A stretch of 64,000 nt of DNA, from positions 9 through 64,008 of the forward strand of contig JACOUC010000036.1 of NCBI GenBank assembly GCA_016178055.1, in the 5' to 3' direction. How positions within the stretch are numbered: the first letter of the stretch is position 1; each line of letters begins with the position of its first letter. A model generated the notes under the pieces. That model did no database searches. It saw only the letters and a list, made by a program, of their open reading frames with translations, and was not told the DNA's origin. The translations under genes and the position numbers were made by a program. Source of the DNA: Chlamydiota bacterium (GTDB lineage Bacteria; Auribacterota; JACPWU01). Below are positions 27,993 through 64,000 of the stretch, one piece after another.

Positions 27993-27994
27993 TA

Positions 27995-29244: not shown

Positions 29245-29345
29245 ATAGCCCGATAAAGGCAAACTATTCGAAAGAATGGGGCGCAAAGTTACAGATCCGA
29301 AGATTTTGAGTTCGTGAATCGTATAACATTCCACGAGTCAGGAAC
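29245..29345 (+). promoter_or_regulatory. c-di-GMP-I (GEMM-I) riboswitch aptamer
   Basis: 29258..29288 reads GGCAAACTATTCGAAAGAATGGGGCGCAAAG. This matches the core of the V. cholerae Vc2 aptamer as I recall it (GGCAAACCAUUCGAAAGAGUGGGACGCAAAG) at 28 of 31 positions. Two of the three differences keep the GAAA-capped stem paired. A second hairpin follows. Confidence 0.7.
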
Positions 29346-29403
29346 CCAGAGTCAGGGTGGCTGAACTGCCAAAGGCTGTGAACTTAGAGTTCCTTTGTGC
29401 ACA

Positions 29404-29435
29404 CCTGTTCTTCGAATAGAAGAACAGGTTTTTTT
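29404..29435 (+). terminator. Intrinsic terminator (riboswitch expression platform)
   Basis: CCTGTTCTTC-GAATA-GAAGAACAGG followed by TTTTTTT, 22 nt upstream of the pseudopilin ATG. Confidence 0.8.
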
Positions 29436-29456
29436 ATGGGCACGAAGAGGAACTCT

Positions 29457-30494: not shown

Positions 30495-30579
30495 TGGCAT
30501 CGATGATGACGAGATGGGAGGAGGAAACAAAAGTGGAGATGATGAGGATACTACTTCTAAAGGAAAGAAAAAATGAGTG

Positions 30580-33170: not shown

Positions 33171-33183
33171 CGATGAACAACGA

Positions 33184-33262
33184 GTCCACGGTCAACGGTC
33201 TACAGTCCATAGAAAAAAATAATTCCTTTAAAGCTGTGAACCGTTGACTGTGGACTGTGGAC
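33184..33262. repeat. Empty hairpin with heptamer-repeat arms between the transketolase subunit genes
   Basis: GTCCACG GTCAACG GTCTACA GTCCAT (33184..33210), a 23-nt A/T loop, then CTGTGAA CCGTTGA CTGTGGA CTGTGGA C (33234..33262). The arms are complementary arrays of GTCNACR. Confidence 0.75.
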
Positions 33263-33327
33263 CATTTTCCTCTAGATGGGTGGACGAAAGTTGGATGAAT
33301 TAAAATTACAATGACTAGGAAACATCT

Positions 33328-35550: not shown

Positions 35551-35577
35551 TGCGGGAATCTGTTACGCGGCGGCGGC
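35551..35577. repeat. Original copy of the repeat at the ORF2 stop codon
   Basis: See 34715..34740. The two copies bracket the MNT-HepT pair. Confidence 0.7.
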
Positions 35578-53500: not shown

Positions 53501-56500
53501 GAACTTCCAACCCGTAATTCTTGATCACCAACCTGAATGACGCTCTCACCAGAAACCACAATGAATTGACCCTTTGCTGAATCATATGTAATAGTAATAG
53601 GCGCCTCTGAATAACCTGCGAGTTTGACCTGTAAAATTTTTCCAGATAAGAGATCAGGTGAAATGCGGTAGAATTCTCCTTTCTTCCAAACTCCTTCTTC
53701 CAGCGATATAGATTGTGAAAATCTGATTAAGGCTTCTTCCTTCCATTGATCTATTTTTTGGGCCAGCTCACCAAGGACATCCGCATATTTAACAGGCAAA
53801 CCTTGCTGGACATATTCTTTAATCTTTGATTTATATTCACGAGCACTTTTGAGATTGTCTAAATAAGCCCAATCGCCTCGTTGAGTTGCACTGAAAATTT
53901 CATAACGAATTCTTTCTCCTTGAGAAGCTCTATATTCTGCAACCACCCCAACTCGATGCGCATGAAGTTGAACTTTAGAATCCTTAGATTGTTTGGCCAA
54001 ATTTTCTTTTGTCTCATGGAGAGCGACACCTCTGATCATTTTCATGATATCAAAATCAAGGGCTCTCGCTTCTTTCAAAGACTCTAGGCTCATCACCGTA
54101 TAAAGTTTTCCATCCACTTCAAAACTGAGGGTCGAACTCTTGCCGCGCGAGCCTTCAAAGAAAACAGAAGTCGAATCTGTCCCCGAACGCAAAGCCCCCG
54201 GTAAATCTTTTAGAGAGGTAATAAAAATATTATTCTCTTTAAGCCAATCAGATTCATCTTTTTTCAAACCTAGTCCAGGGGAACTTCCATTCACCAAACC
54301 AATCTGTAAACGTTGAAGAACCATTACAAAATCTATCGAACTCAATGAAGTTAAATCCCCTAATGCCAATTCCTGATGCTCGCCCACCGGCTGAGCGGTG
54401 GAAAGAGGAATTATTTCCGCTACCGGAGGGCCACTGGCTTCGAGAGCAGCTATATTAACTTCTACCTCAGACAGCTGTAACCCCATAACCTGACTGGTTT
54501 TTCCATCGATTAAAAAAGTAGCGAGATTAATTATTAAATTTTTTCCGGGCAAACCTTCAAGAGGAATCGCACATAAAAGCTCGCTTCCTTGTAAAATGAA
54601 TTTTAAATTTTGAAGATCTAGAGAGAAATCTCGAAGAATAGCCCCTGGCGACGACCGATCTTGTTCGAGCGCAGTCGAGAACCCGCTCTTTCCCATAGCC
54701 TGAAGCCTTGCCCCAACAAAATCACCAAAAGATTGTGGACTGACAGCCGCATCAGTTGCTTTAAATTCAGCATAAAGACTTTTTAAAATGGTCGAAATCA
54801 ACTGAAGTTCATAGGCAATAATCGGAGCTCGGTCTTCGGGAAGGCCTTCAGCATTGGTCATGAGCCAATGCATGAGACTCTTCTGGCTCGAGGCTCGAGG
54901 CTGGAGGCTAGAGGAGGAAATAGGAAGAGATTCATTTTCTGCTTCTTCGGTTTGTTTTTTTTCTTTTGTTTCTGCCTCGAGCTTCGAGCCTCGAGCTTCG
55001 AGCCTAAGATTTTCCCCCACCCATTTCTCAAAAGGGGTCAGCTCCCCCATCATTACAGATTCATAGCGGTCCGCAGAAGATGCATTAAAATGAGGGATGA
55101 AGACAACATACGAGTAGCCCGCCTGTTTCAAGGCTTCCTTTAGAGCTGGAGTATGGAACCCCCCGGTCATCACGGCCCCGAAAGACTCATCAGACTCTTT
55201 CAAGCGATTTAACGCCCGAAGCGTCATTTCATGATCCCGTTCAAGCGTTGCTTCATAATAAGGTTCGATCTGGCTAAGCCGATCGGCCAAGGGATAATGG
55301 ATATCTTCAGCATGCTCTTCTACAGTGTAAGCCCCCGATTCATGCTGAATGAATTTTAAAATTTTTGGAATGAGCTTATCTTTTTTAGAAACGTATTCCT
55401 GATATTCAGATTTCTCAATGGAGAGATCTGTAAGGCGATCCAGAAGATTAATAAAGGATGAATAGAGGCATAAAGATTTTTCTTCCTCGGTCACACATTC
55501 AGCAAATAAGGTTTCAAAGGCAAGTTTTTGGATTTGTTCAAAGAGGAGGGCATCACTGACTTTTTGCACCGCTTCGAGATAGTTCATGTAGTTTTGGATA
55601 TTTGGATAAGAATTTGAAATGCTCGAGGCTCGAGGCTCGAGGATCGAAGCAGGCATAGAAAGCTCCATAAACCTCTTCACTGTCTGATAAAATTCTAAGG
55701 GGGCAATCTCATTCAAACGATACGATAAAGTCTGCTCTAAAAATTTGGCCATTTCCTCATCACTGGCCTTTCCGTTGACGGCGATGAGAAGCTTTCCCAT
55801 TTCATTGTGAATTTTCTTTAGATCAATATTTTTCTTGAAGGGAAGCGTTGCAAGATAAGGCTTAATCTCTGAAAAATTTTCAAGATTGATTTTTGCCTTT
55901 TCGCTCTCCCTCATGAGACTTCCCATAAAATGCTCTAAATCTATTTTGTAGGTAAGATAGTCATTCAATTCCCTTACAAAACTCTGAACTTCACCTGTAT
56001 AGACATAATCCGAAAACTGAGCCATTAAAATTTTTAATTTAGCAATATGCTCTTTCAATTCTTTGCGAAGAGAGACCGTATCCCGGTAGGCATGATAATT
56101 TTTTAAGTAGAGATGGATATCCTCAATCCCATAAAGTTGAAGAGGCTTTTCTCCATTGATCGCTTCAAACTCAGCACCCGTGAGCTGACCCAAATTGAGA
56201 TATTCCTCGGACACCTCTTTTAATATTTTTTTATCGGGGAAAGATCGAAAGCGTTGGGTCGAGAGCTCACCCGAGGCGGCTTCGATGTTGATCCTTTTAA
56301 GATTATATTTTTGAGCGAGATATTCTAAGAGGTCCACCGTATTTTTCTGAGCTTGAGGATGGGCATGAATATCCTGAAAGAGGAAAACGGTATGGCTTGA
56401 GTTCGGCGCTTGATACGTCTCGATCACCCGTCCCAGCTCTGTCGGAATAAAAATAGAGGAAGAATTTTCAAGAGAAGAAATGGACGCCGCTTCTTTAGCC

Positions 56501-56601
56501 CCTAAAGAGGCGTAAAGGGAGAGGTTGTCCTGAGCCAGAAAGGCCAGAACAACCGTTGAGCTGATAATTTTTTTGAAAAATTTAAAATTAAAAATCCCCA
56601 T
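35563..56601 (-). CDS. Giant multidomain ORF2 (7012 aa). Order: signal/TM, ChaN/TraB-like N-domain, repeated unknown modules, FHA-like segments, three HExxH sites, CPBP-like membrane block, 2x Ser/Thr kinase, 2x PP2C, shared C-terminal domain.
   Basis: Uninterrupted ORF with recognisable catalytic motifs along its whole length. No convincing ORFs on the opposite strand. N-terminus MGIFNFKFFKKIISSTVVLAFLA. Confidence 0.8.
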   Translation of the reverse strand: MGIFNFKFFKKIISSTVVLAFLAQDNLSLYASLGAKEAASISSLENSSSIFIPTELGRVIETYQAPNSSHTVFLFQDIHAHPQAQKNTVDLLEYLAQKYNLKRINIEAASGELSTQRFRSFPDKKILKEVSEEYLNLGQLTGAEFEAINGEKPLQLYGIEDIHLYLKNYHAYRDTVSLRKELKEHIAKLKILMAQFSDYVYTGEVQSFVRELNDYLTYKIDLEHFMGSLMRESEKAKINLENFSEIKPYLATLPFKKNIDLKKIHNEMGKLLIAVNGKASDEEMAKFLEQTLSYRLNEIAPLEFYQTVKRFMELSMPASILEPRASSISNSYPNIQNYMNYLEAVQKVSDALLFEQIQKLAFETLFAECVTEEEKSLCLYSSFINLLDRLTDLSIEKSEYQEYVSKKDKLIPKILKFIQHESGAYTVEEHAEDIHYPLADRLSQIEPYYEATLERDHEMTLRALNRLKESDESFGAVMTGGFHTPALKEALKQAGYSYVVFIPHFNASSADRYESVMMGELTPFEKWVGENLRLEARGSKLEAETKEKKQTEEAENESLPISSSSLQPRASSQKSLMHWLMTNAEGLPEDRAPIIAYELQLISTILKSLYAEFKATDAAVSPQSFGDFVGARLQAMGKSGFSTALEQDRSSPGAILRDFSLDLQNLKFILQGSELLCAIPLEGLPGKNLIINLATFLIDGKTSQVMGLQLSEVEVNIAALEASGPPVAEIIPLSTAQPVGEHQELALGDLTSLSSIDFVMVLQRLQIGLVNGSSPGLGLKKDESDWLKENNIFITSLKDLPGALRSGTDSTSVFFEGSRGKSSTLSFEVDGKLYTVMSLESLKEARALDFDIMKMIRGVALHETKENLAKQSKDSKVQLHAHRVGVVAEYRASQGERIRYEIFSATQRGDWAYLDNLKSAREYKSKIKEYVQQGLPVKYADVLGELAQKIDQWKEEALIRFSQSISLEEGVWKKGEFYRISPDLLSGKILQVKLAGYSEAPITITYDSAKGQFIVVSGESVIQVGDQELRVGSSPFAGSSPKSLNLVIKDSESLISRFHLSLKKDSQGHLIVRHLGKNKSPYSLSSVEKPLSYTQAEVEEIYNRFRVSLQSGNPSIEVSFSPKNRDTELFKNIEIILKKGQGYAAAAEFLREFFKPYHFVFQSRRAYGSILLGRLDSYIPISLGLHPPFRILFVHPDYDNRGNARGFKIPGINDEVYVLLQDSESRRELSSEELERLRLSTGYHEALHNFNALLKKINPHFKLSFADDEYTAYVASLIAIPDEVNVKRFFETELFGYWEEAELAKAQARGRGESTSNTLAVESDDKGGHSKAIHHLFKEFAKKVSARTAIPIVIPKFIDLQGLSRSEQKEKLKAISQKIWLDLGQDSNKIHDIALELMKEFYRDEKGLGYVPDFVEDTSWMRAHELSRVYVRDGKEVGLNKQLPLLEEGDLDSVKKVAAYLAVHYSYSDLEAALRFYQANVAVVTPALKEVINFLNGSYLNIKDKISALKQALTSTATIVEGINGKHDSTVREVVPVSIAFKPSGIFTSMPARSVEGDSAILVPSVEPRRLDIAETVKLEVLGGQTVVERPELESFKQKLRPLPIRPELKDQLVLFVSNCLETRTVHLSVFDRTFQNPLGGLELTQDEIGALMIALSYIPDVGDAILNHMVSHLFNDFLFQKYKKEERGIDREGQNLLSYLQRNFVLGREAEWKSSILYHLVLLHLEARARNIAIEAPIPESFIKEMEEAVSFLPRPMTDAYRTFIAFSGAERGMSSLGVARLAQTVLSLSLNFQLLEQQRTSEPMAVTFFHELCHKLSTGSNREKTPLFSVDRWIRMSKASGFTAYIDDAGSRFTMDQLASLSIEGFRSLQPDGWVRQERGEEVVYVSSDLYEYMNLLNKKDMIQLTGDVFQIDEEIAQFKETKGDDLFGFLEARAIQLRQAGISFSQLREDKEGDRSHWKQNPHEVVAIAGSWYMMNSKELEYLLKNLSRSSELLQKFGVEAETYFRDALGVLKETFFTSTDRKGNLLTYDFDFYKGNIIQRIHQPLPLPLQKLLSSVGNGLSQVTDEGVDERFLAFFKEVQDWDQIRAWVKEFNLSEELQKAFERQRKAVVDTLLMKAEERAHQNYSWIKVHSKIKNFREVRLNSTGSVGMGSDYDLSILNEGSERILMAFDDVWKEAGFQDSSYQVFDANSYGDPLIIDISRQEDSLRRQQALLLETQVAYTAFLIDGGGPSHEMWKSLKEIPSLQDFLAQAEAYYGKVQGQLAAEISNLDPTIPEGLREEEARRRILRRKLERLARFKEENNVVTQENIIPLSMSQRVQLLSLSMEVRLFEKDPHYSTGAIFHVVNQMQKEGERIEFIDMTPLRYLHSMTELLGKFEHQRESYQGDPIQTLMKTAKYMARIRDAGLKAGLSGPGMETLHALAKKALYVKGILKSREAVALELQKWVEPSSGRAPPVLLNKLAGVRGPPGREQQISAEQIAQAMVDLSREIILNIYQGLLPTAMRELQPPTQSRLGLLPRLASVPAVVAPSLGEIPLVGSMRREPFVGYPGDDSALPLSLAASGSVTDKVSPSLVWSGQPILNPVTDQAVEPSLSLKNFPRGHHGGHEGTATALAIQVRQDLCSQGKPSQAFDEVLRHESGEWQIIQIILAALGERDSQLKTQLLALPGVEERFDADERDHPNTDKALILATIIAHQVQSYLEAGQTPEGLTQLSRLKILEMNGTELAGFVESAFKAENIQARINYQNQLSGLINPLLQKYRYPILSIDSIHTYEERFRDEARRELKGRMNWLYPVWNWLRQHGILARRMSGVILSLSLLSSGSLAPALLRVPSINPPNITGGGARKNIWSEGDSLGKEGDGVILIKAQQIQGQRVALRLGKTINLEKTVELPISTQGEVTTETINNEAITCRIFNYDSQNESDVIGQHLKSFTGAYLLPVESSDGQNPVYYIFMDQSLNESERAEALQFEKLKAAWYHKLRWTLPQDLELQAKIPPSFMEKGRPNIIRMAHVLAWGSLIKENSWSIVDNSTFLTRQVNEYVSNVEVSSQDKSAFFSQDRSAHSQLRKLFFDGKDGEIFVFDWFETSLKVYGEVLLKGESFRPTYTQPQAEGIYSMLLKFFQGKLQADGGEYQTWISDMKRKNPKLVESVGAVLQKSWNYTQAAEFLRQFFKPYHLVFYAHPSDIVLLGRLDSYIPIHLEPYSEFRVAFVRPDYTNKDNYRCFAPSKQDEVYVLLKEGRDERLTLSTVYHEAIHKLNELADLLNKGLSRPNDEYTAYLGSLAAIPDEINVMRFFETELFEYWKKVEEVKEQVRQQGGLDTGTMAIPQIEKGHAQAIHHLFKEFAKKLSSPTGTQIIIPEPEAMRNLDREKQKEKLLAVSGQIWEAAGRDSKKIREIALELLKEFYKREFKEIPVFIEDTAWMSAHESGRTYIRNGQEVSEAALSLRERFLIKPSKTFWGRILITWVAPILETGLFWSLVHGSVDYFSLQAPLALTAFFVSGFLFSAGHVIVLWMIDRYRLPSDQRYRNFGDAFKREFLNYFVVYVYFSIFYLGIYDVAIFIFSAPVAPLVSASIGLALIHSIYNRLILRAREGRLPSWVPRGVSDFLKILPLASMAALAPPRNSPSARGQDSVEAALQTQDDAKACELLWNNLLKDPTQFQSTYTRLIGLVQRHDQVVREALERGDKSSAMQLSESLKKFWEKTPGITIKQKSSDRDKSLDLLHECMLDYTRASVSFLEGLREFELNQTGFAIAKFQRAFNITQGRLSPNATLDSTLRPIFEKTFNDIMKGFENVAQRAYERRNHFDYDRVVSIVGPERTRQMKQKLFPFLKDSAPENWMASFPEQNLPPLGEKYKILGLLVSSSIAKVFEVELVKPLESDEPKGSYSAGTRCVVKVPLDQEPAMSQGQARNREMEMQEAVVKISEGENIVPRVLEKSSYRDPTTGGTRHYFAMEYGSGKQLKDFIQRFRAKETLEEADIQRMLLCFRRILLAVQKVHQANIVHLDLKPENIIYDEETGRITLLDFGISVSVNEEIHRIVGTLGYMAPEIVDIDQISESAPGYRVRFSSDLFSLGTLFLEALTGKNPFGAEAFLDEGQKRQVLTNTVAVDFFEKNPHHPRLLNLPSPWVDWLRKLLEKDPQQRTQTIDQAIDDFDVIASTGLEEINLTDLESQDILLTWTGSSPDLGNSVVVKVSLEDGNFNFSRIGSNDEEVSLGSRATDILEEKILLGSLGPHTNTRNIRLPSVNGGTPIGRVSLRVSDGKLFIGYREGLTISYEDKPGQLSLEEEEIGIEVKREPGVYSMATLAANAHMGRNEDSYFRIVLKDEMIVGGVFDGMGGAAGGEVASTIARVVVSEYLKQKISNASEEQIPSILGEAYQKAQLAIELVASLPRPLFEDEFLDSFLEKVLNLLPGRLKFSFDVSEIRGVMKSHFAAYSIENLLSNAVLGYLKSVYGQDVDKQYNFLTLKDSVLNDWKRFFTIEVGKQFSNTFLNLKQDDAKKLIGNFVKEMNRKMDRAINENQSIEAFWKAFFPLSNMGTAGGTSIIVPQSDGTSNIYVINVGDTGFYLKEPGKKLRVMTIDNYIPSEEQRNRSISLDEADKARKNTPQLFLASVLSLRDCDRCENLLPSNLQGNPKEVFENRNALGTSLTPGMKCIPVIVKAEGVKAGTRLIGVCDGLRDNLPDETPGGSIHDSIDKIMDETAPGEAPLLLIQKSREVRDTSANKGSTHPLRGRAKDDDMTGYEEVIQPSKFAPLAVQPSAQRKVLELKDLPLENTPLGEVKTAKDQPGPLLRFPMSVLEKKDLILRVPGARSEESIEVRVSLQLDGGVALSFEGKGISSTSLCKWNKDHLTAGQILGRDDKTLLRLFQALSEKHVRIQRVEDDLEVEHLGSRTSFRGEEKPPTPFVESAVKVEAEKWINELKSGDSLPVGPGNFSNRTLVLGVKGLVKKLGAPESFDKEILHIDYRSGQFVLSLPKKGDKIFAPGRQPGVENFILEQGKVVTVGSRAKKTAESDLLLPDDTNARKISTPQFSLNLSQDGQTLIITQIGQTFPTQYRWEALVSASGVTPIFQSHTIGENKDIQLSDLTTLTDTQFVEQLEGMQEEMRKACSKFGLDAQSLETVTAGDPTHHILFTTLNGLPGRISSQDLHYFTDSTGKSRSSSISFVVNGQLYTVISVDYLKDKPDESLDVQKTARGIVVHERSEYQELIERMGEAQVDTIAALPESLRREAHQTGVRTEFAQTHGERIHWDILLAAKTGNIQYLQSLKPASQLKLPTGAKDLEGLANQVDEWKIEALLSYHSTNPLVSPLLPEVRNNLESLQRGGASLESQLHLANAYIALIAGLENLNSVQTPRTLDSFEQSCEFILQTLTTSPKTVILNFDAFTAAFTGSLNTMLTRLEKWEITKDIKRIASFSESFLNGLDKNIYKSRITDHKNIIASIDLSIGEAQDAIRKLEGKQLSEYPYMGSRLENRYDIVGYLAQGGMGRIWIAEDENGRRVLIKEALDQDKLPFFKREAELQAKIHRKDVAAIYDFGEGTFVSGVEKKEKKSFFIAMEWVEGVTFDDWVKDFPSSGAFSVDDMIKLARVSLNFLNSLQGVQDGDVNHHDVKEDNVIVDPITLQTQLIDFGLARSKTDDLSKDGGQVSGSSSYLSPEKLLTQMFQQHLEPVDVSDPDPLRRSDLYGMAVMIFHVLSHGKDPFSDQDIQEEEISWINANQFLKGVHGGLRVLVQQYPAFRKTVNVFLRKLFAQPNLNILEDNRPLGRGEGEMWKLWIEWVKKGLHNELAANRSSVVVDGETQKVLNPAKNRMDFEEAREKLLEIISLGEKLKAEESSMASFLSAGGDMSFTGQGEWGLMGMEGWDTETSGGSGSFNSHVVGNHPDIQLSDVTSLSVTDFVNRIKTTQTNTRDQCAQWGLDLEEIDQTALAQNVQVLYVRLSDLREMPGGDRQRDSHYLTNIIGARSPSISFVANNQLYTLITVDYLEPSGELDTDIDRVVSGIVTHEGSEYQRLLELMKKVGVSRIDQLSIDLRQQAHRVGVAAEYRASKGERIHHDLLLARKRSDQKYLQGLAPSEKLILEIRNDPNISHNDQASLESLAQDVDRWRVEATVFSHLTKASSAHPDRNEDNRFAMVLRNGWRVSGVLDGVGGRPGGQVASTLAKIVISSILSEELEEASDEDQVYTILARSFKRAHSVIEKMSQVPNPYMILEEVPESMIESYLDNIISRVLRIPLSAHDRNQIKRVLRKSFSSEPSIFTPEWVEEMKRGSTTQGDVESLRKHFRDNQRGILEAFDAVSRSEARINELESFFYGKDWNIFLKLFPINRMGTTAAVSLVIPKKDGTYMVYTINAGDSRVYLRRPKTKLLPLTIDNYPVTTSSSLLIYDARRAKKIRLIWTLQPFYSTVEQEGDFEKWEHLIPSDFNRYTPEQLWQRRNRVVNSLIANHLYFPIVVVAEEVPSGSWLLEMTDGISDPLSDSQMGRVISRVPVRDVPRVLVEQAEGIDILDDRTQPNLNIRSKGSDDKTVQVQSLMDPLAIAPAMPSSITSRTIGSGHFSEENAQDIYEQVKHRQSGPDGYVERLKNSLSVRGMALTDAQIKEWFTDRNIIFASRNDSPDRGRHPYYFTTTDADGVVSTASSVTVDVDGVRWSVIPIEYLIEAATVTLFDGRIHFKDVVDDIFNHEDREFGLKKSSTSSLEPRASSLNAHRSGVAAEAGWRLQLEMKLASGEELNGLEPSSTFKSKIDQYEMTDAEKLSLKTKSEQIDRWKDEELKNIRVLPNHLRVATKAFLNLFVNSRESFGKGKGVVDFDLANLVDAKGVKRPEADFYIEILKEAAQKMKNNKGFKIVLMNHDQIKKDSLKSALGPEFDSLLSITGEENNRSVLLLTPESKDLAGEALFNFIKAELAKPGYGLEALEKKDFQFIVHMEHRSLYEGLISKDLNIILLSNDEINIQVDSVSPEVLEMIGKIDPNLAQQFRENKTIHIERKNLSDEITRNNLKAISELAAAAA
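35566..36210 (-). other. ORF2 block: C-terminal domain shared with ORF3
   Basis: VVDFDLANLVDAKGVKRPEADFYIEILKEAAQKMKNNKGFKIVLMNHD aligns with LLLIDLSTLVDGNNIARPGAEASIAVLVKAAAQMRQSQGQMKIVLVDHE of ORF3 (56705..57337). Confidence 0.6.
36486..36515. repeat. In-frame (GCTCGAG)x4 tract
   Basis: GGCTCGAGGCTCGAGGCTCGAGGCTCGAGG, translated as SSLEPRASSL. Confidence 0.85.
37130..38255 (-). other. ORF2 block: PP2C phosphatase domain B
   Basis: HPDRNEDNRF...VLDGVGGRPGGQVAS...INAGDSRVYL...TDGISD. Confidence 0.75.
39340..40165 (-). other. ORF2 block: Ser/Thr protein kinase domain B
   Basis: LAQGGMGRIW, VLIKE, HHDVKEDNVIV, IDFGLA. Confidence 0.8.
42490..43695 (-). other. ORF2 block: PP2C phosphatase domain A (with a large internal insertion)
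   Basis: GRNEDSYF...VFDGMGGAAGGEVAS...INVGDTGFYL...CDGLRDN. Confidence 0.7.
44125..45030 (-). other. ORF2 block: Ser/Thr protein kinase domain A
   Basis: CVVKVP, HLDLKPENIIY (~44560..44583), LLDFGIS, GTLGYMAPE. The Gly-rich loop is degenerate (LVSSSIAKVF). Confidence 0.8.
45820..46235 (-). other. ORF2 block: CPBP/CAAX-protease-like membrane region
   Basis: Several TM helices with APILETGLFW, FSAGHV and LIHSIYN. These resemble the CPBP motifs EExxxR, FxxxH and HxxxN, though the first is degenerate. Confidence 0.4.
46545..47105 (-). other. ORF2 block: HExxH module, copy 2
   Basis: HEAIH at 46828..46842. Paralogous to 52565..53175 over ~190 aa (AEFLRQFFKPYH...GRLDSYIPI...DEYTAY...RFFETELF.YW...AIHHLFKEFAKK). 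Confidence 0.55.
52565..53175 (-). other. ORF2 block: HExxH module, copy 1
   Basis: HEALH at 52858..52872. A third site, HELCH, lies at 51154..51168 in a different context. Confidence 0.55.
54885..55004. repeat. In-frame palindromic (GCTCGAG)n hairpin element, long-loop variant
   Basis: Arms 54885..54914 and 54974..55004. Translated as LEARGSKLEAETKEKKQTEEAENESLPISSSSLQPRASS. Confidence 0.85.
55085..56460 (-). other. ORF2 block: N-terminal ChaN/TraB/Tiki-like domain
   Basis: LFQDIHAHPQAQ ... MTGGFHTPAL. Homologous to ORF1 and ORF3. Confidence 0.4.
55621..55650. repeat. In-frame (GCTCGAG)x3 tract
   Basis: GCTCGAGGCTCGAGGCTCGAGGATCGAAGC, translated as ILEPRASSI. Confidence 0.85.
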
Positions 56602-56701: not shown

Positions 56702-59700
56702 CTACGCCTTTACCGCAGCCAAGTCATACATCTGACGCGTTGCTTTATATTTTTCCTCGTCTAATTCTTCTTTCTTAAGATGCACGCTATAGGTCTTCAC
56801 TCCTTGTCCCACCTCTTTTGCCTTAAACCGTTTTGCAAGCTCTGCATTCATTGCGCTCAATTTATCAAACATCGTTTGATCAAGCTGGATATCAATCGCA
56901 TCGCCCAGTATGAGTTGATTCAAAATTTTCGAGTAAATAGATTGATGGCTGGGGTCGATCACAACCTGAATATTTTGAACTTGTAATCCCATTAAACCCT
57001 TCGCCTCAGCCGCTTTTATAATATAATTTTCCATATTTTCAGGGCTTGCCTCTTCTCGAGTGGGTGCCTGCTCAAAAATAATTCCTTCATTTCTAAATCT
57101 CAACAAAACTTCGGCTCCAGGAATTTTCTTATCAACCAATGCCTGAAGGCCACCGATCTTACCTTCATGGTCAACCAATACTATTTTCATTTGGCCTTGA
57201 CTCTGACGCATCTGGGCCGCTGCTTTTACTAAAACTGCAATTGAAGCCTCAGCCCCAGGACGAGCGATATTATTACCATCCACAAGAGTCGAAAGATCGA
57301 TCAGCAAAAGCGCCGGAGCTCTATCCAGTGCCTCTGGTCTGTCCATAAAAAGTCCACGAACAACTCCCTCAAGCGCTTCAGCCTTAGACGCTTCAAAACG
57401 ATTCGCAGATGTTTTCCGGATTGACTTCTGAAGCAATGCAAATTGTTTAACCGAGGTCTCAAATTTTTCAATTTGGAATATGACATTATCCGGAGACTTT
57501 CCTAAGGCTGTTAATATCAAGGGTAAATATTGCTTAATAAATTCTCTCTGCTCAGCACGATCATCTCCAATCACAGCTTGAAGGGCATCTAGATCCATTT
57601 CTCGAATTTCATTCCAGAGAAATTCTACTTGAGTAATATCAGTCCAACCATTTTCAATGATTTGAAGGGCCCAGGCCAATATATGACTGACACGAGCAAG
57701 ATCTGGTAACTCCCCCAACCCCTCTTGAACCAAGAGGGGAGTCCCTCCTACTGAAGTCTCTCCCCTTTCTTTTAAGGGGGAGCTGGAGAGGTTACTCTCC
57801 ATCCAATTTTTAATAAATATTTCCATCTTTTCATGCTGAAGAGCAATTTTTTTATCTTGGGCATTCCTAGAAATAAATATATAGAGCTTGCCATCATTCC
57901 CATAGCAGTGATAGGCCCCGCCGACCGTCTTTAAAATATCTTTTAAACCTGGAAACAATTTTTCCAGATGAGGATCATTTTCATCATAGTTCACTTCCTG
58001 ATACGTTGTAACCCCTCTAACTCCCCTTAAACTAAGGGGAGAGCCCGTCTCCCTTCCCGATTCAAGAGTAGCCATCTCCCCTCTTGGTTCAAGAGGGGTT
58101 GGGCGAGTTACGTTCTTTAACTTACTTAAATAAGGGTCGCCATCATCAATTGTCACCGTCCGACTCTTACTAATTTTTTTTAGATTTACTGCAAATTCAA
58201 TCATCTTTAATTCCTTATCACGACTCAAACTCACTTGATGATGCACCAATTTCTTACGAGCTCCGCCGCTTCCTGGCGTACCAGAGCCCGGAGGTGTTTT
58301 GGAGCCTGAAATTCGGGCGAGCCATCGGACGAAGGGAGATTGCGCAAACGCTTCAACCTTAAGCCAAGAAATTCCTGCCAATGTTGTATAAATTAGACTT
58401 TTTCGAAAGGTTAATTCCTCTAATGCCCTTTCCCTGAACCTTGATTCATAAGCGTTTAACTCGTCCATATTAATCTGCATAGTTCGCATAGGTTCTGGCA
58501 TGCGCCTATTTAAAGTTTCTATGACCCGATGCTGAAGAGATGCCCGCATTTCAGACGTTTCTGCTTCAACTCTTTCGAGAAATGCAGTGTCTTTCTCCCT
58601 CATTTTTCTTTCATGAAGTAGTGTCAACCCTTGTTTTCCATATTTGATGACCTCTAAAGCCGCCGCCCCTATGTGAGCTGCAAGGACAGCGATGCTATAT
58701 TCACGAGTTTCTCCACTATATCTTGCTCTACGCTGGACAAGTCTCTCTTCTAAAATAGGCTCTAGTTCATCTATCAAATCTGGATTGCTTATAATCCACT
58801 GCATCAAGTGCCATTCTGAAATTTCATGAACACCCACTTCGTCACGTTCTTCCATTTTAAGGTTTCGACTCATCCAAATTTCAACACGATTCCTTTCAGC
58901 AACTTTAATCACCGCATCATTTCCTTGAAGTTTATCAGCAGGCACCAAATAACAGCTTAGTTCGGCATCTTCACCCAAAAAGTTTTTAATCTGTTTATAA
59001 GGAAAAGATGGAATTAAAAATGACTCGTACTTATTTGACTCTGCCGGCTCATGAAGTGAGGGAAGACCCATCTCACCCTGAGAAGAACGGCTTTGATCGG
59101 CCCTTTGACCCGTAGAAGTAGTTGTAGAAACTGCATGAGCAAGCGTACCAAAAGCACCCGCCACCTCTGGAGCCAAAACATCATCAACGATTTCGATGTC
59201 AGGTGAAATTTCCTCTGGTAAAACAATGTCTAATTGATCTAGGGCCTCTGAAGTCGACATTCTCTGTGTAACGTCCTTCGCGAGAAGTCCTCTGAAAAAA
59301 GTTTGAAGATCGGAATTCAATTTTGAAAAAGCTGCTTCATATTGTCCATCAAAGGGATCGACATTTGTCACCTTTTCACGCCCTTTTACTGCACGACCTT
59401 GCCCCGTGGGCACTTCTCTATCCATGACTCGAAAGGGACTTGTGTTTAAAAGGGACATATATAAAATAACCCCCAGTGCAAAAAGATCACTTTTAAAACT
59501 GAAATTGCCATCATAAGTTTCTGGAGACATATAGGTAAGAGAGCCAATAATGAATCCGGATCGAACCTTTATTTCAGGAGAACCCGCAGCCCCAAAATCG
59601 ATCAGGGTCATTTTGTTTGTTTTAGGATTATAAAAGAAGTTTGCAGGCTTAAGGTCTCGATGGACTAAATTTAGGCCATGAACTTCTTCCAAGGTTTTCA

Positions 59701-62700
59701 GCAGCTCTTTAAAAGCCGTCAAAATATTATTCTGAAATGTTTCATATGTTAACTCTCCACTCACCAGTTGAGTTCGAAGGTTATGAACATATTGATCCCA
59801 TCTGATTGTCCCTTCTTCTTGAGTTACATCATCCATTGCAATGAATGAATCCCCATTTTCTAGAACACCAAACTCACGAACCGCAGGGTCTGGATTGTTT
59901 GGAAGGTCATGTACTTGTTTCTGAATTTGAGCTTCTCTTTCAGGGGTTGGGAGATAATGATAATCATCCTCTGGGCGAGGCGAAATAATTTTTAAAGCTA
60001 CGTGCTCGTTAGCATTTGTATCCAGAGCTCTAAAAACAGAACCTTGACCTCCTTCACCTAACTTCTCCAAAATCTGATAGTGACCCATGACTGTTCCAAT
60101 CTCATAAACATGTCTAGGTGTAGAAGGTGAAGCAGAGGGCGACAATCCACTCTCCCCTTCAGGAGCAGGTTCTTCTAGCAAGGCTTCGACTGGGACTTCA
60201 GGTCTAGCTAAAAAAGAGGAAGCCTCTGCCTCAGCCAAAATAACCGGTGTTATTCTCTCTAACTCATTCAAAGCCTGAGCGGCATTTTTGAATCTTTGAC
60301 TCACATGCTGATCTAGAATTTGTCTTATATAAGACATCAAGGGAGGAGAAATAGAAGCAATATCTTGTCCCTGAAACGCATCATTACCCAATTTCTTCGT
60401 TGCAATCACAACTTCTACATCTCCTGGAGCAATGCCAAAGGGAAAAGAAGCAGCGATCATATTAAAAAAGATTACGCCAGCAGAATACAAATCTGATTGA
60501 ACCGTTCGTCTTGTCTCAGGAGCTGCGTATAAGAAAGAAAGCTGCTGAAGGGCTTGTTCTTCTTCCGTCTCACTTGTTGAAGAACCAAAATCAAGGAAGG
60601 TGATTTGATGCTTAGAGGCATTGTAGCGTATATTTTCAGGTTTAAGGTCATTGTGTAATATCCCCCGAGCATGAAGTTCACCCAAAGCAGTCAGTAAAGC
60701 TTTAAAAAACGTTAGCATCTCTTGCATGTATACATCTCTTGAAAGAGTTCCTTCATCCATCCCATCTTGTAAGCGTACAATATAATCCTGAAGATCTTCA
60801 TCTTGATTAAAGTCCATCACAAGAAAATGACGTTGGCTCCCCTGATCATAACCATATCCATAAACTGAGGGGGCAGGTCCTCCATCGCGGGATGCAGATA
60901 ACTGACGTTGATATTCTTGCTCAATTTTTCTTTCGGCATCCTCAGCTCCCTCTTTCATCCACTTAATAGCACGTACATTGCCATCAACATCCTTAGCCTC
61001 CCAGGTTTCTGCAGTCGTTCCTTCACCTAATTTATTTACTAAGCGATAGCGACCATCAATAATCGTTGCCCCCTGACGATTCCATTGACTTAACACTTCA
61101 AAAGCTTGGACTTCAGCATTCAAAGCTTCTAAGGCATCATTGATATTCCAATAAAGCTCATCCAGTTGTTTTCTATCTTCCGCCGAAAGTTGAGCCAAAG
61201 CATCTCTTGCACTAACAAAATCATTCACTAAATTTGCTTCGCTCAGATTTAACGACGTCACCTCATCAGGTGAGGCAGAAGATAAATCTTCCCTCCATCC
61301 CTCAACTTGATTCATTGCCTCAGCAATACGATTCCGTAGAGAAAGCATTTGAGACCGAAGCGTCTCTTCTCCTTCAGACCCAGCCAATTCAGGAGACGGA
61401 GCTTCTTCTCCTCCACCAGCCAATTGAAATTCATCTAAAGAAGCGCTGTTAAAATCAATTCTCAAAACGGGCAGAAGATGATCATAAGTATGCTGATCTG
61501 GCGAAGACAAAACCTGCTTCAAAATTGCCTTTCGTTGCTGGTGAATTCCTGTTTCTAATACAGGATCATTTAATTGGTTTAAAATAGATCTCAAGTCCTG
61601 ATCACTTTCAAGAAGTCCTAAAAATTCGACATATCGCTCATCGATTCTTTTCAAGGAGGCCCCGCTCCCTTTCGGAAGTTTCCGAGCTCGATCAAGGAGA
61701 CAATCCATCCAAAAGGCTGAAACAGCATGAGGAGTAAGCGTCTCCACAAAAGTATTCCCTAAAACGCCACGAGCAAGAACCTGTAAGGGTGCTTTAAAAG
61801 GTTTCATTCCCTTTTCACTGTAAGGTCTAAATCGAAAAATGAGGGGCTCCCCTTTTATTAATCCAAATACAAGCCGGGCCCCTTCTTCATCCAAAGCACT
61901 ATATAAAATTTTAATCCCTTCACGATCTCTATCTTTTAACCACTGCGCTAATTCAGGATTTTTCTCTCTCCGCTTACGCGCATAAGCAAGCGTTGCTGCC
62001 GTCAGAGCAAATTCAGCCTTAAAATCATCTCCCACTTGCGTTTTTCTTCTGGGATCCGTGCTGATAAATCCAATGCCATCCTCTAGAGCAAGCATTTCTC
62101 CAATCCCCTTTAGATCTTCAGCCGTCAACGCATATTCTGGATCGCCCATTCTCTTCAGATAAAGCTGATAAGCCTCTTCAATAGAGTCCCTCGGAATCAC
62201 AGGAGAAATCACATGATAGGAAATATTTTTTTGTTGAAAGAATTTTTCCAAACCAGGGGTATGATAACCCCCAACCATCAGAACAGCACTCTTAACATTT
62301 TTTTCAGAAAACGAAGCCATGAAATTTTTGGCGATTTCTCCATCGCGAGATTTAATAGTTTTGTAATATTGCTCATACAATGGAAAATATTTTTTCAATG
62401 GAGCACTATCTTCGCCCATAAACTGCTGAATTTTATCCCAGCCCAAACGCTCAATCGTTTCCTCAACAAGCGTTAAGTCATCTTCACGACCTCTTAATTC
62501 CGCCATTCTTTTAAGGGCATAGAGCCATTCAAAAATAATTGCGGATTTATCAGAAATAAAACTCAGTTTAAGATTCTCTTCAATCTCACGAATTTCTTCC
62601 ATCAATTGATTGTCATTAATTTCAGTTCTAAACTGATAGGCCTGAATCGAACGGTCAATATTAGGGTAATCTTTTAGATTAATTTCTGAGCGCTTAGAGA

Positions 62701-63754
62701 AATCAATCAGAGCCAGATAATATTCATTAATTGAAAGCTCATTCATTCGATATTGAAGCGTCAGTTCAAGTAATTGAATGAGATCCTTTCGGGATAATTC
62801 ATCACCTAAAACATCCAGAAGCTTTCTCTCCTCATCTCCCAAGAGACTTGGATGAATTTCTTTTTCCATTTCAAAGTAATGAAGAACGTTTACATAATTT
62901 CGGATTTTGGATTTTGGATTTTGGATTTTTAAGGAGATCTGTAAATCGCTTAAAGCCTGGCAATAATCAAAAAGGCTTAATTCGTGACGAACATATTGAT
63001 CATGAAATTTAATCAATGAAATAAGTTGAGAGTTTTTTGCCTCGAGCCTCGAGCCTCGAGCCTCGAGCTGCTTTATTAATTCCTCTAAAACGGGCAGGAC
63101 TTCATCCTTCACCTTTAAAACATCTAAAAAGAGTTTCTTATTTTTTAAATAGTAAAGAGGCGTTTCAATTCCATAGAGAAGTGGATTGGACTCACTTGTA
63201 ATGGCATAAAACTCAGGCCCATTGAGCTTGGCATTTTTCATCAAAAATTCTGCAGTATCTCGGCGGATTTCTGGATCTGGAAGATTCTTAAAATAAGAAT
63301 AATCAAGGGCGCCACTGGCGCCTTCAAGGGCGATGAGAAAGCTGGAGCTTCGAGCTTCGAGGCTACTTTGGCTCGAGGCTCGAAGCTCGAGGCTCGAGGT
63401 AAATACTTTCTCAGTTTTTGCTTTTGTTTCTGCTTCGAGCTGATTTTCAATAATTTCCAAGATCCTGGCCATTCGCCATTGGACTTCAAAGTTCCCGTGG
63501 GCGTCTTGAAGGAGATAAATGGTTTTTGCATCTTTATCGGGAGAAATCCAGCTTCGCTCAATCCATCCTAATTTTTGAGGAATATAAAAATCTATATTTT
63601 TACCGAGAGAAGAAACGGAAGCAGGATTAAAGGGCAGCGTTTGCGCAAAAAGACTCTGGGAAGAGAAAATCATATCTTTCTCTATCAAAGAGAATGCGAA
63701 GGCAACCGTCACCCCAATACGGATCAATTTTATAAATAATGTTTCTCTTTTCAT
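56702..63754 (-). CDS. Giant multidomain ORF3 (2350 aa). Order: signal/TM, ChaN/TraB-like N-domain, 2x Ser/Thr kinase, unknown modules, shared C-terminal domain.
   Basis: Uninterrupted ORF. N-terminus MKRETLFIKLIRIGVTVAFAFSL. It lies 100 nt upstream of ORF2 on the same strand. Confidence 0.8.
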   Translation of the reverse strand: MKRETLFIKLIRIGVTVAFAFSLIEKDMIFSSQSLFAQTLPFNPASVSSLGKNIDFYIPQKLGWIERSWISPDKDAKTIYLLQDAHGNFEVQWRMARILEIIENQLEAETKAKTEKVFTSSLELRASSQSSLEARSSSFLIALEGASGALDYSYFKNLPDPEIRRDTAEFLMKNAKLNGPEFYAITSESNPLLYGIETPLYYLKNKKLFLDVLKVKDEVLPVLEELIKQLEARGSRLEAKNSQLISLIKFHDQYVRHELSLFDYCQALSDLQISLKIQNPKSKIRNYVNVLHYFEMEKEIHPSLLGDEERKLLDVLGDELSRKDLIQLLELTLQYRMNELSINEYYLALIDFSKRSEINLKDYPNIDRSIQAYQFRTEINDNQLMEEIREIEENLKLSFISDKSAIIFEWLYALKRMAELRGREDDLTLVEETIERLGWDKIQQFMGEDSAPLKKYFPLYEQYYKTIKSRDGEIAKNFMASFSEKNVKSAVLMVGGYHTPGLEKFFQQKNISYHVISPVIPRDSIEEAYQLYLKRMGDPEYALTAEDLKGIGEMLALEDGIGFISTDPRRKTQVGDDFKAEFALTAATLAYARKRREKNPELAQWLKDRDREGIKILYSALDEEGARLVFGLIKGEPLIFRFRPYSEKGMKPFKAPLQVLARGVLGNTFVETLTPHAVSAFWMDCLLDRARKLPKGSGASLKRIDERYVEFLGLLESDQDLRSILNQLNDPVLETGIHQQRKAILKQVLSSPDQHTYDHLLPVLRIDFNSASLDEFQLAGGGEEAPSPELAGSEGEETLRSQMLSLRNRIAEAMNQVEGWREDLSSASPDEVTSLNLSEANLVNDFVSARDALAQLSAEDRKQLDELYWNINDALEALNAEVQAFEVLSQWNRQGATIIDGRYRLVNKLGEGTTAETWEAKDVDGNVRAIKWMKEGAEDAERKIEQEYQRQLSASRDGGPAPSVYGYGYDQGSQRHFLVMDFNQDEDLQDYIVRLQDGMDEGTLSRDVYMQEMLTFFKALLTALGELHARGILHNDLKPENIRYNASKHQITFLDFGSSTSETEEEQALQQLSFLYAAPETRRTVQSDLYSAGVIFFNMIAASFPFGIAPGDVEVVIATKKLGNDAFQGQDIASISPPLMSYIRQILDQHVSQRFKNAAQALNELERITPVILAEAEASSFLARPEVPVEALLEEPAPEGESGLSPSASPSTPRHVYEIGTVMGHYQILEKLGEGGQGSVFRALDTNANEHVALKIISPRPEDDYHYLPTPEREAQIQKQVHDLPNNPDPAVREFGVLENGDSFIAMDDVTQEEGTIRWDQYVHNLRTQLVSGELTYETFQNNILTAFKELLKTLEEVHGLNLVHRDLKPANFFYNPKTNKMTLIDFGAAGSPEIKVRSGFIIGSLTYMSPETYDGNFSFKSDLFALGVILYMSLLNTSPFRVMDREVPTGQGRAVKGREKVTNVDPFDGQYEAAFSKLNSDLQTFFRGLLAKDVTQRMSTSEALDQLDIVLPEEISPDIEIVDDVLAPEVAGAFGTLAHAVSTTTSTGQRADQSRSSQGEMGLPSLHEPAESNKYESFLIPSFPYKQIKNFLGEDAELSCYLVPADKLQGNDAVIKVAERNRVEIWMSRNLKMEERDEVGVHEISEWHLMQWIISNPDLIDELEPILEERLVQRRARYSGETREYSIAVLAAHIGAAALEVIKYGKQGLTLLHERKMREKDTAFLERVEAETSEMRASLQHRVIETLNRRMPEPMRTMQINMDELNAYESRFRERALEELTFRKSLIYTTLAGISWLKVEAFAQSPFVRWLARISGSKTPPGSGTPGSGGARKKLVHHQVSLSRDKELKMIEFAVNLKKISKSRTVTIDDGDPYLSKLKNVTRPTPLEPRGEMATLESGRETGSPLSLRGVRGVTTYQEVNYDENDPHLEKLFPGLKDILKTVGGAYHCYGNDGKLYIFISRNAQDKKIALQHEKMEIFIKNWMESNLSSSPLKERGETSVGGTPLLVQEGLGELPDLARVSHILAWALQIIENGWTDITQVEFLWNEIREMDLDALQAVIGDDRAEQREFIKQYLPLILTALGKSPDNVIFQIEKFETSVKQFALLQKSIRKTSANRFEASKAEALEGVVRGLFMDRPEALDRAPALLLIDLSTLVDGNNIARPGAEASIAVLVKAAAQMRQSQGQMKIVLVDHEGKIGGLQALVDKKIPGAEVLLRFRNEGIIFEQAPTREEASPENMENYIIKAAEAKGLMGLQVQNIQVVIDPSHQSIYSKILNQLILGDAIDIQLDQTMFDKLSAMNAELAKRFKAKEVGQGVKTYSVHLKKEELDEEKYKATRQMYDLAAVKA
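57719..58106. repeat. Two inverted pairs of perfect short hairpins inside ORF3
   Basis: CCCCTCTTG-AAC-CAAGAGGGG (57719..57739) with CTCCCCTT..AAGGGGGAG (~57759..57782). In reverse-complement order, CTCCCCTTA-AAC-TAAGGGGAG (58029..58049) with CCCCTCTTG-GTT-CAAGAGGGG (58086..58106). Confidence 0.75.
59225..60082 (-). other. ORF3 block: Ser/Thr protein kinase domain 2
   Basis: LGEGGQGSVF, VALKII, HRDLKPANF, IDFGAA, SLTYMSPE. Confidence 0.8.
60260..61051 (-). other. ORF3 block: Ser/Thr protein kinase domain 1
   Basis: LGEGTTAETW, RAIKWM, HNDLKPENI, LDFGSS. Confidence 0.75.
62902..62929. repeat. In-frame (GGATTTT)x4 heptamer tract
   Basis: Translated as KIQNPKSKI in ORF3. Confidence 0.85.
63039..63068. 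repeat. In-frame (CCTCGAG)x4 tract
   Basis: GCCTCGAGCCTCGAGCCTCGAGCCTCGAGC, translated as LEARGSRLEA. Confidence 0.85.
63341..63441. repeat. In-frame palindromic (GCTCGAG)n hairpin element
   Basis: Arm 63371..63398, loop TAAATACTTTCTCAGTTTTTGCTTTTGTTTCTG. Translated as LEAETKAKTEKVFTSSLELRASSQSSLEARSSS. Confidence 0.85.
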
Positions 63755-63844
63755 ACTCCTTCTCTAACTCCCCCATCTCCAAACTCCCAATTTAAAGATA
63801 CGATCGAGATGGACATTTCCAACATAAAAAAACCTCTTTTTTGT

Positions 63845-64000
63845 TTACGCTGCTTCTTGGGCCATCGGATGCACCCTTCTTCTTTCATCTAATCTTTGAG
63901 AAGGACTTGAATTCGTAGATGGATCATTCGATAATCCTGCAAGCAAGAGATCCACAGCCCCAATAAAATCCGCTTCAGTTGCAATATCTCTAAAATGGGC
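63845..64000 (-). CDS. 3' end of a further minus-strand ORF, truncated by the window edge
   Basis: My own translation of the open frame running from the window edge: AHFRDIATEADFIGAVDLLLAGLSNDPSTNSSPSQRLDERRRVHPMAQEAA, then a stop. The Ala-rich C-terminus resembles the ends of ORF2 and ORF3. Confidence 0.4.
   Translation of the reverse strand, partial: AHFRDIATEADFIGAVDLLLAGLSNDPSTNSSPSQRLDERRRVHPMAQEAA

Follow-up and report, generated by a model that had tools for sequence, protein, structure and literature searches.

In-frame heptamer arrays and heptamer-armed hairpins in the loops of an N-terminal domain shared by three giant proteins of a groundwater bacterium

Heptanucleotide simple repeats are over-represented in bacteria, where a genome may hold several unit families and arrays of about four units are preferred; the published arrays are mostly intergenic, with under-representation inside coding sequence (PMC4692102, PMC4679880). 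Palindromic elements carried in frame within protein-coding genes are known from Rickettsia and Opitutus (PMC10969869, PMC3733652). The DNA described here is a stretch of 64,000 nucleotides, called the window throughout (contig JACOUC010000036.1, positions 9 to 64,008), from a groundwater metagenome-assembled genome (MAG), GCA_016178055.1, to which NCBI gives the name 'Chlamydiae bacterium' and under which name the window's proteins are deposited. Three giant open reading frames on its reverse strand, ORF1, ORF2 and ORF3, contain tandem arrays of 7-base units, as well as hairpins whose two arms are such arrays, and the case combines the two known phenomena. We consider it fairly probable, at roughly 0.6, that these sequences are selfish or slippage-born repeats kept only in permissive loops of the encoded proteins, as with the palindromic elements of Rickettsia. 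Not encountered in the literature searched are hairpins armed with heptamer arrays and embedded in frame, their concentration in one paralogous domain, and the reuse of five of its loops with turnover of the occupants. Two recent papers on giant Omnitrophota genes make no mention of heptamer repeats.

The closest described systems are the Rickettsia palindromic elements (RPEs) of Rickettsia conorii and the intragenic repetitive extragenic palindromes (REPs) of Opitutus terrae. These too are short multi-copy palindromes read in frame in genes that stay intact, they add 20-40 residues at fold-compatible positions, and their families are also found between genes (PMC10969869, PMC3733652). The hairpins of the window differ in having tandem 7-base arrays as arms instead of a unique palindrome, in occurring in one paralogous giant-protein domain instead of in unrelated genes, and in their host, a free-living or episymbiotic groundwater bacterium of the Planctomycetes-Verrucomicrobia-Chlamydiae (PVC) type; nor do they carry GTAG or CGTC tags. 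The cyanobacterial short tandemly repeated repetitive (STRR) sequences, the GGGAATC arrays of Xanthomonas and the TAACTGA arrays of Beggiatoaceae are likewise tandem heptamers in several families with about four units (PMC4692102, PMC4679880), often sited just after stop codons and translatable in one orientation, whereas the GCTCGAG family of the window is exclusively intragenic and often takes the form of hairpin-forming inverted pairs. Contingency loci resemble the present arrays in having units that are not a multiple of three in the 5' part of coding sequence, but the arrays here are short, imperfect, several per gene and equal in length in two MAGs, and a frameshift would abolish the whole product of 2,350-7,012 residues.

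Position of the repeats in the N-terminal domain

All three giant proteins open with a paralogous domain of about 500 residues. ORF1 spans 3931..19998 (annotated start 19887, 5,318 residues), ORF2 35563..56601 (7,012 residues) and ORF3 56702..63754 (2,350 residues), and the N-terminal domains lie at 17599..19887, 54802..56601 and 61835..63754 (residues 1-640), respectively, all on the reverse strand. The ORF1 domain is enlarged by inserts at four loops, designated N, A, B and C. A profile built from the three domains returned 8,518 cluster representatives at E <= 0.001, many thousands of residues long; most of the shorter homologs, found by searching with a consensus query, are named 'Candidatus Omnitrophota hypothetical protein' by NCBI, and stand-alone proteins of about 520 residues exist. 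The three domains represent three deep clades in a neighbour-joining tree. A Pfam search of the three domains gave zero matches, and two weak PAH-like stretches were marked by Pfam in the region of loops A and B. An AlphaFold2 model of ORF3 residues 1-640, based on a 109-sequence alignment (mean predicted local distance difference test score, pLDDT, 81.5; predicted template modelling score, pTM, 0.76), has an N-terminal helix followed by an alpha/beta core that is interrupted by a large helical insertion (about residues 199-484) holding loops A and B. The core is putatively Ere/ChaN/TraB-like and may belong to the Ere/ChaN/TraB/Tiki-like superfamily, with which it would share the alpha/beta core fold. 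In the model, loop A comprises residues 275-284, with helices 261-274 and 285-298 on either side, and loop B comprises residues 356-363, with helices 342-355 and 364-376 on either side. Loop N falls in a low-confidence loop.

An earlier reading of the window, made from the sequence only, reported three repeats in ORF1, ORF2 and ORF3 and assigned them to one homologous site. A re-scan of the three genes confirmed that each repeat is present where it had been reported. In ORF3 it is a solo (AAAATCC)x4.7 array at 62897..62929 (reverse strand, 96% matches), which reads as GGATTTT on the forward strand, with four exact copies at 62902..62929, and encodes the peptide KIQNPKSKI. In ORF2 it is a solo GCTCGAG-family array at 55620..55647 (reverse strand, 3.9 copies, 95% matches), with three exact GCTCGAG copies, or four if one mismatch each is allowed, encoding ILEPRASSI. 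Tandem Repeats Finder (TRF) and our own scan agree that both are head-to-tail 7-base units in three or more copies. In ORF1 it is a long-loop GCTCGAG hairpin of 120 nt at 18798..18917 (reverse strand), encoding LKARGSKLEAKAKTKGKTENVENKSLPLSSSSLEPRASS, with arms at 18798..18827 and 18888..18917 that are 83% complementary around a 60-nt loop. This hairpin folds at -55.9 kcal/mol (z = -6.2). The ORF3 array is without RNA structure (z -0.96), and the value for the ORF2 array (z -1.4) is not notable.

Placement was determined with three alignments, a MAFFT alignment of the three paralogs, an L-INS-i alignment of 61 family members, and an hmmalign alignment to a profile of 39 insert-free homologs. 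All three concur in placing the ORF3 array (profile positions 237-243) and the ORF1 hairpin (230-240) in loop A and the ORF2 array (314-319) in loop B, about 80 profile positions downstream. The proposal of a common site stands for the ORF3 array and the ORF1 hairpin; it fails for the ORF2 array, and with it the equivalence of all three positions. Loop A of ORF2 is a native, unoccupied 15-residue linker, MRESEKAKINLENFS, at 55870..55914 (reverse strand, profile positions 234-244), and loop B of ORF3 is a native, unoccupied 13-residue linker, IDFSKRSEINLKD, at 62669..62707 (reverse strand, profile positions 313-322). ORF1 is occupied at both loops alike; its loop B region, 18286..18577 (reverse strand), shows a GCTCGAG array at 18551..18577, then an insert of about 100 residues.

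The family consensus at loop A is DYVKYL, a 15-residue linker (ESLGQKHKINLRQYE) and NFFKLVSVL, and that at loop B is EYYxYL, a 14-residue linker and YPNLFNYIIY. Compared consensus to consensus, the two segments are 48% identical over 42 residues (E 3e-8). By this similarity, one helical unit is present in two tandem copies, of which loops A and B are the corresponding linkers. Because they represent the same position of an internal duplication, found twice per protein, the flanking pattern that had been taken to mark one site fits both loops, and it is present twice in every protein.

Elements and their turnover at five loops

The survey of relatives included paralogs in the same MAG (locus tags HYS07_; proteins P0003, P0005, P0006, P0007, P0016, P0057, P0265 and P0266) and other close relatives from sister MAGs (HYS08_, HYZ66_ and HYZ67_); GCA_016178005.1 and GCA_016196885.1 are sister MAGs. 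The sample at the DNA level consists of the window plus two sister-MAG loci, L124 and L125, while other paralogs were read as protein only. In the 61-sequence alignment, inserts of at least 7 residues occur almost only at positions 98, 237, 313, 402 and 526 of the conserved core consensus, which correspond to loops N, A, B, C and D. All of the clustered inserts belong to the approximately 20 closest relatives; the approximately 45 distant homologs have plain linkers, 15 residues long at A and 14 at B. At least 17 combinations of occupant and site fall in 5 of about 24 loops, for which uniform placement gives an upper-bound p of 1e-7, a rough figure in view of shared ancestry.

Single loops hold different element families in different proteins. 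Loop A holds the AAAATCC array in ORF3, the long-loop GCTCGAG hairpin in ORF1 and P0016, its short-loop form in P0005, an A-rich element in P0006, P0011 and P0057, a GTCCACG/GTCAACG hairpin in P0007, and other palindromes in P0003 and P0012. Loop B holds GCTCGAG arrays in ORF2, ORF1 and P0003, an (ACTCACG)n array read as SRLTTHDSQL in P0008 (an ACTCACG array is also present in the sister MAG), and two palindrome families, one in P0004 and the other in P0007, P0010, P0011 and P0059. The latter family, recognizable by the peptide footprints PLKLRG.. and ..GVGGV, fills loops B and C in those four proteins. Copies of it also lie inside ORF3 at 57706..58117, far from the N-terminal domain. A weak TRF match at loop A of P0010, (AGTTAGA)x4.3, was not accepted as an occupant, as the linker there is of normal length. 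The idea that different heptamers came independently to occupy one site, which fails for one of the trio on which it was founded, is borne out across this wider set of relatives.

Occupancy changes even between orthologs. P0015 and P0004 are products of adjacent genes in a sister MAG and are syntenic orthologs of ORF3 and ORF2, with 44% and 53% N-domain identity, respectively. P0015 lacks both the loop N element and the loop A array of ORF3. ORF2 and P0004 are both filled at loops B and D, with different elements. The peptide KSEVRSQ at loop D of P0004, known from the protein reading only, is consistent with (AAGTCAG)n, and GAAGACA/GAAGTCA units, near-identical to AAGTCAG, are found in an array in a valS-like gene of the sister MAG.

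Six copies of the GCTCGAG hairpin occur in the window, all on the reverse strand. Their DNA alignment shows a common plan in which inverted heptamer arms, 83-91% complementary, surround a AAAAGCAAA..GAAGTATTTAC loop, in a short-loop form and a 120-nt long-loop form. Three ORF1 copies preserve exactly the junction at which the GGCTCGA-type arm gives way to GGCAAAAGCAAA; in the ORF2 loop D and mid-ORF1 copies it has diverged, and the ORF3 loop N copy has lost it. Besides the ORF1 loop A copy, the set includes short-loop hairpins at ORF1 loop N (19440..19565; -50 kcal/mol, z -3.9), at ORF1 loop C (17940..18058; -56.4 kcal/mol, z -7.2; its loop in a different frame, RQKQKLEKHLLRASS) and in mid-ORF1 (8840..8932; z -5.9), a long-loop hairpin at ORF2 loop D (54878..55012; -53 kcal/mol, z -6.6), and a hairpin at ORF3 loop N (63335..63405; z -5.4) that is not in the ortholog P0015. 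The five full copies fold at between -46 and -56 kcal/mol and the short ORF3 loop N copy at -31.6 kcal/mol, with z from -3.9 to -7.2. Among the relatives, the long-loop variant is found at loop N in P0006 (with a related long loop in P0005), at loop A in ORF1 and P0016, and at loop D in ORF2; the short-loop variant is found at loops N, A, B and C as well as in mid-ORF1. Protein footprints of the hairpin loop are seen in paralogs P0003, P0005, P0006, P0016 and P0057.

One and the same loop DNA is read in two ways, yielding AKAKKAEVFTSS at ORF1 loop N and QKQKLEKHLLRA at ORF1 loop C, and solo arrays of the family occur in both orientations, giving LEARGSR and LEPRASS. The aligned copies show that the GCTCGAG hairpin is a DNA element of defined form, its loop conserved, and no protein motif. 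The coding copies leave three or four of six frames open; among intergenic relatives, most or all frames contain stops. The giant reading frames are intact despite the inserts. No Rfam family was found for any of the hairpins. Inspection of the six copies gave no consistent target-site duplication and no shared flanking motif; AAAAC flanks the ORF1 loop A copy only and was treated as chance. No transposase or RAYT-like gene (REP-associated tyrosine transposase) was found in the window. Assignment to miniature inverted-repeat transposable elements was rejected since the inverted arms come without a consistent target-site duplication and without a transposase in the window. Assignment to the REP/RAYT class, as defined in PMC3733652, was rejected because the tetranucleotide tag is missing; the aligned copies have neither GTAG nor CGTC, and their arms are GGCTCGA/TCGAGCC arrays.

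The window as a whole is rich in repeats of this period, with 13 period-7 arrays against 0-2 for each of periods 4-6 and 8-12, and the same excess is found in L124 and L125. The unit families are GCTCGAG, AAAATCC, ATTTCGA and GTCCACG, with ACTCACG, AAGTCAG and others in the sister MAG, and heptamer families are found both inside genes and between genes. In the window, the GCTCGAG family is confined to the three giant genes; other families between genes often follow directly after a stop codon and often form inverted pairs. GCTCGAG and GGATTTT arrays are stop-free in all six frames. A 7-base repeat can sit in a gene because, cycling through all three frames, it still presents no stop codon. Further solo arrays include a perfect (GCCTCGA)x4.3 array in ORF3 at 63039..63068 (reverse strand), encoding LEARGSRLEAK, and a (GCTCGAG)x4.9 array near the ORF2 C-terminus at 36482..36515 (reverse strand), encoding SSLEPRASS. 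The latter and the mid-ORF1 hairpin are the only two genuine GCTCGAG-family loci outside the N-terminal domains in the window. Between genes, a hairpin with GTCCACG/GTCAACG arms at 33178..33262 belongs to one family with the P0007 loop A insert; that insert matches the stop-containing intergenic hairpin at 33180..33266 with E 0.004. The translation NIKNQNDISKSKI of an intergenic A-rich AAAATCC/AAAATCA element at 27994..28047 is similar to the inserts that P0011 and P0057 carry at loop A (E 0.005, a weak match between low-complexity sequences).

Origin of the repeats

According to the explanation that we favour, arrays would arise in place by slippage from proto-repeats, or would arrive by copy-and-paste of hairpin elements, and selection, itself inferred, would retain only in-frame, stop-free copies in structurally tolerant loops. 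As 7 is not a multiple of 3 and all frames are read, only units that are stop-free in the reading orientation should survive in genes. Loops A and B would both act as sinks because they are equivalent long linkers of two tandem helical repeats. The occurrence of the same arm-plus-loop variant at non-homologous loops argues for copy-and-paste as the way in which the hairpins would have spread.

For the ORF3 AAAATCC array, local growth by slippage is proposed. The array runs on from the native Lys-Ile codons of the linker, AAA ATC, and exceeds this seed by three units (21 nt), by which the frame is kept. Removal of three units leaves TTA AAA ATC CGA AAT TAT (L K I R N Y), which aligns with GCA AAA ATC AAT CTT GAA AAT TTT (A-K-I-N-L-E-N-F) of ORF2 at the common AAAATC, encoding the conserved Lys-Ile of the linker. 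This codon comparison favours local growth of the ORF3 array. According to the model, the insert positions are predicted surface loops and are compatible with the fold, the array at 63039..63068 excepted. Two mechanisms had been suggested from the sequence alone, a targeted insertion or replacement and a hot spot that tolerates linkers. The second is better supported, because the inserts sit in what are predicted to be surface loops, the linkers of distant homologs are plain, and the ORF3 array is continuous with native codons; the first is without direct support. The co-occurrence first noticed would therefore owe most to selection, which would act as a filter on elements that are supplied in unusual abundance.

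Several observations weigh against a filter of this kind as the whole explanation. In eight paralogous giant proteins, GCTCGAG-derived peptides are 24-fold denser in the N-terminal domains (16 loci in 5,560 residues) than elsewhere (3 in 24,943 residues); a pure tolerance filter would not readily predict this, because the rest of these long proteins must also hold tolerant linkers, and the enrichment gives a hint that paralogy, recombination or targeting played a part in the spread. At 63039..63068, an array inside a predicted helix takes the place of native sequence, with a net gain of only about three residues over the ortholog, which is at odds with simple insertion into a loop. Array length is uniform, about 27-34 nt (4-4.7 copies), in all unit families and in coding and intergenic arrays alike (the window, L124 at 18327..18359 and 20289..20318, and L125). 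Lastly, no array differs in copy number between two MAG contigs, which is a weak test at 0.03% divergence. The comparison involved JACPWT010000011.1, which is the window's contig or its near-identical twin (the twin MAG is GCA_016196915.1); across 64 kb, the pair is separated by 17 single-nucleotide polymorphisms (SNPs) and by a single indel of 27 nt that is unrelated to the arrays. One SNP, at 62908 (K283E), falls inside the ORF3 GGATTTT array, whose length is unchanged. The preference of G-rich heptamers for four units has been attributed to G-quadruplexes (PMC4692102), an account that cannot hold for AAAATCC or GCTCGAG arrays.

These points bear on the strongest alternative, targeted insertion or replacement, in which mobile hairpins would home to some DNA feature that both linkers have in common, or would nest within hairpins or arrays that had settled there earlier, and an occupied site would be re-used and its occupant replaced. 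Insertion sequence IS1397 and cyanobacterial small dispersed repeats target palindromes, which provides a precedent. Recurrent inserts are confined to five sites; the orthologs ORF2 and P0004 are both filled at B and D by families that differ; ORF1 has GCTCGAG elements at B and C where, among its nearest relatives, P0007, P0010 and P0059 carry PLKIRG/GVGGVM, and at N where P0010 and P0016 carry KLGSWEAK. The presence of one long-loop variant at N, A and D means that it moved between sites, and targeting would also account for the 24-fold enrichment in the N-terminal domain. However, the six copies show neither target-site duplication nor a common flanking motif, the window has no transposase or RAYT-like gene, the ORF3 array seems to have grown from native codons, and a selection filter alone is able to give recurrent sites. 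We judge targeting unlikely but not negligible, because so few sites are occupied again and again, with occupants that change between close relatives.

A broader proposal is that heptamer-armed hairpins make up a distinct and widespread class of mobile stem-loops, with cargo ranging from a few bases to a small gene, such as those of the IVP and PDDEXK_3 cassettes described below, which home to or exchange at existing arrays and which, in this lineage, supply microhomology for cassette replacement or domain shuffling at the loops of paralogs. In a collection of species-representative genomes, at least 120 stretches contain an exact (GCTCGAG)x3 array, against an estimated chance expectation of about 0.3; the scan covered GCTCGAG only, and the figure is no measure of its frequency relative to other heptamers. 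The matches listed include Acidobacteriota, Planctomycetota, Gemmatimonadota, Wallbacteria, several Omnitrophota, Dehalococcoidia, Bacteroidota and haloarchaea, more than ten phyla in all, with many copies in one Planctomycetota, one Acidobacteriota and one Wallbacteria MAG. Inverted GCTCGAG pairs with unrelated loops are found elsewhere, as in a Balneolaceae locus (L022) at 3133/3228, 4586/4674 and 5565/5660. Such a spread of (GCTCGAG)n across phyla, often as inverted pairs with unrelated loops, is expected of a mobile class of this description. The arm-loop junction GARGCTCGAGGCAAAAGCAAAR gave two chance matches only, without arrays, in a metagenome collection, and the element itself was not found outside these MAGs. 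We regard the proposal as improbable, and distinctly more so than targeting.

Marginally less probable again is a selected function, whether as mRNA hairpins that pause translation or protect long transcripts, as flexible or cleavable linkers, or as phase-variation switches. The hairpins are unusually stable for coding sequence and are concentrated in the 5' domain of very long genes, and PMC4692102, citing Lin and Kussell, and PMC8262952 indicate that phase variation can occur in pathogens at heptamer arrays close to the start of a gene. Against this, occupants are not kept between orthologs or paralogs, most family members, including the stand-alone domains of about 520 residues, are insert-free, and the solo arrays of ORF3 and ORF2 have no structure. 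Phase variation in particular was rejected, since the tracts have 3-5 units, many of them imperfect, occur several to a gene and all in frame, and have equal lengths in both MAGs with no change between the contigs. Finally, that the repeats are a peptide module acting at the protein level (LEARGSK/LEPRASS) or a product of misassembly, as might be suspected from peptides that recur at many sites and from a sequence that is a metagenome assembly, is very improbable given that the common unit is DNA read in different frames and both orientations, that two independently deposited MAG contigs concur on every array, that all arrays preserve very long reading frames, and that at least 120 stretches, belonging to many phyla, contain this heptamer array.

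Should the favoured explanation, repeats retained in permissive loops, be true, these genes would provide a second, independent case, outside Rickettsia, of selfish palindromic DNA absorbed into proteins at permissive loops, with the added features of heptamer-microsatellite arms and of datable gain, loss and turnover at five loops in one domain family. The inserts would serve as a natural map of insertion tolerance for a large uncharacterised domain family that heads many giant proteins of Omnitrophota type. The repeats also present a hazard for annotation, in that LEARGSK, LEPRASS and KIQNPKS in predicted proteins would be footprints of DNA repeats and not protein motifs. A shared mechanism of origin could underlie the cross-phylum distribution of (GCTCGAG)n and the uniformity of the arrays, which measure about 30 nt.

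Other repeat-bounded cassettes and neighbouring features

Two small genes in the window are bracketed by inverted arrays. A 435-nt cassette at 24215..24649 contains a 120-residue IVP-family gene (PF05635, about 24256..24618, forward strand) exactly between two heptamer arrays, (ATTTCGA)x4.4 at 24215..24245 and, at 24619..24649, the reverse complement of that array. The cassette lies between GDE and TldD genes, and its second array constitutes the first 13 codons of the annotated TldD. It is similar in size and layout to the intervening sequence with the S23p/IVP gene in the 23S rRNA of Coxiella burnetii (428 nt, PMC4990558), but it lies between protein-coding genes and not in rRNA, and its inverted repeats are heptamer arrays. 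We infer that a link of the IVP cassette to the gene-less hairpins is conceivable. A PDDEXK_3 (GxxExxY-type) gene of 158 residues at about 26179..26655, between two TldD/PmbA genes, is bracketed by inverted arrays at 26119..26176 and 26580..26647 with an 11-13-nt, AACGCGGATCT-like unit. With repeat arrays at its ends, this locus resembles a second cassette for a small gene.

Repeats with related features were found at the sister-MAG locus L124 (GCA_016178005.1). The valS-like array noted above is an in-frame (GAAGACA/GAAGTCA)x5.4 array at 2048..2089 in a valyl-tRNA synthetase-like gene (…WYCQNCRKTEDRSQKSEDRKNK…), from which it follows that heptamer arrays enter housekeeping genes too. Other, perfect arrays overlap the final codons of two genes, one for a glycosyltransferase (20289..20318) and the other uvrB (6191..6221). 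The loop N hairpin of P0010, at 10163..10238, has arms of 8-base units, GCTGGGAA / CTCCCAGC, and encodes KLGSWEAK…SLLASQL; repeat-armed hairpins are therefore not limited to 7-base units. P0010 itself (625 residues) overlaps the start of a 1,570-residue frame at about 11797..11878. The break lies near a run of eight A's and not at a heptamer array, and stems either from a frameshift in a giant gene or from an error in sequencing.

The twin contigs differ mostly within one gene. Over 57853..63903, ORF3 accounts for 15 of the 17 SNPs, 11 of them protein-changing, while ORF1 and ORF2 (12,330 residues) are identical. The excess in ORF3 may reflect diversifying selection, recombination or strain mixing. 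The sole indel, 27 nt at 30483..30509, is present in the window only, at the 3' end of the gene at 29397..30494, and involves no heptamer array. The N-terminus of the product of that gene weakly matches DUF1559 (SBP_bac_10), and directly upstream of it lies a c-di-GMP-I riboswitch at 29248..29373 (forward strand; Rfam RF01051, 56.9 bits, E 1.8e-8). Small genes for DUF4160, DUF2442 and a MazE-like antitoxin pair occupy 2700..3900, between ORF1 and a UbiD gene. In the twin-contig annotation, HEPN/nucleotidyltransferase pairs are present on both sides of ORF2.

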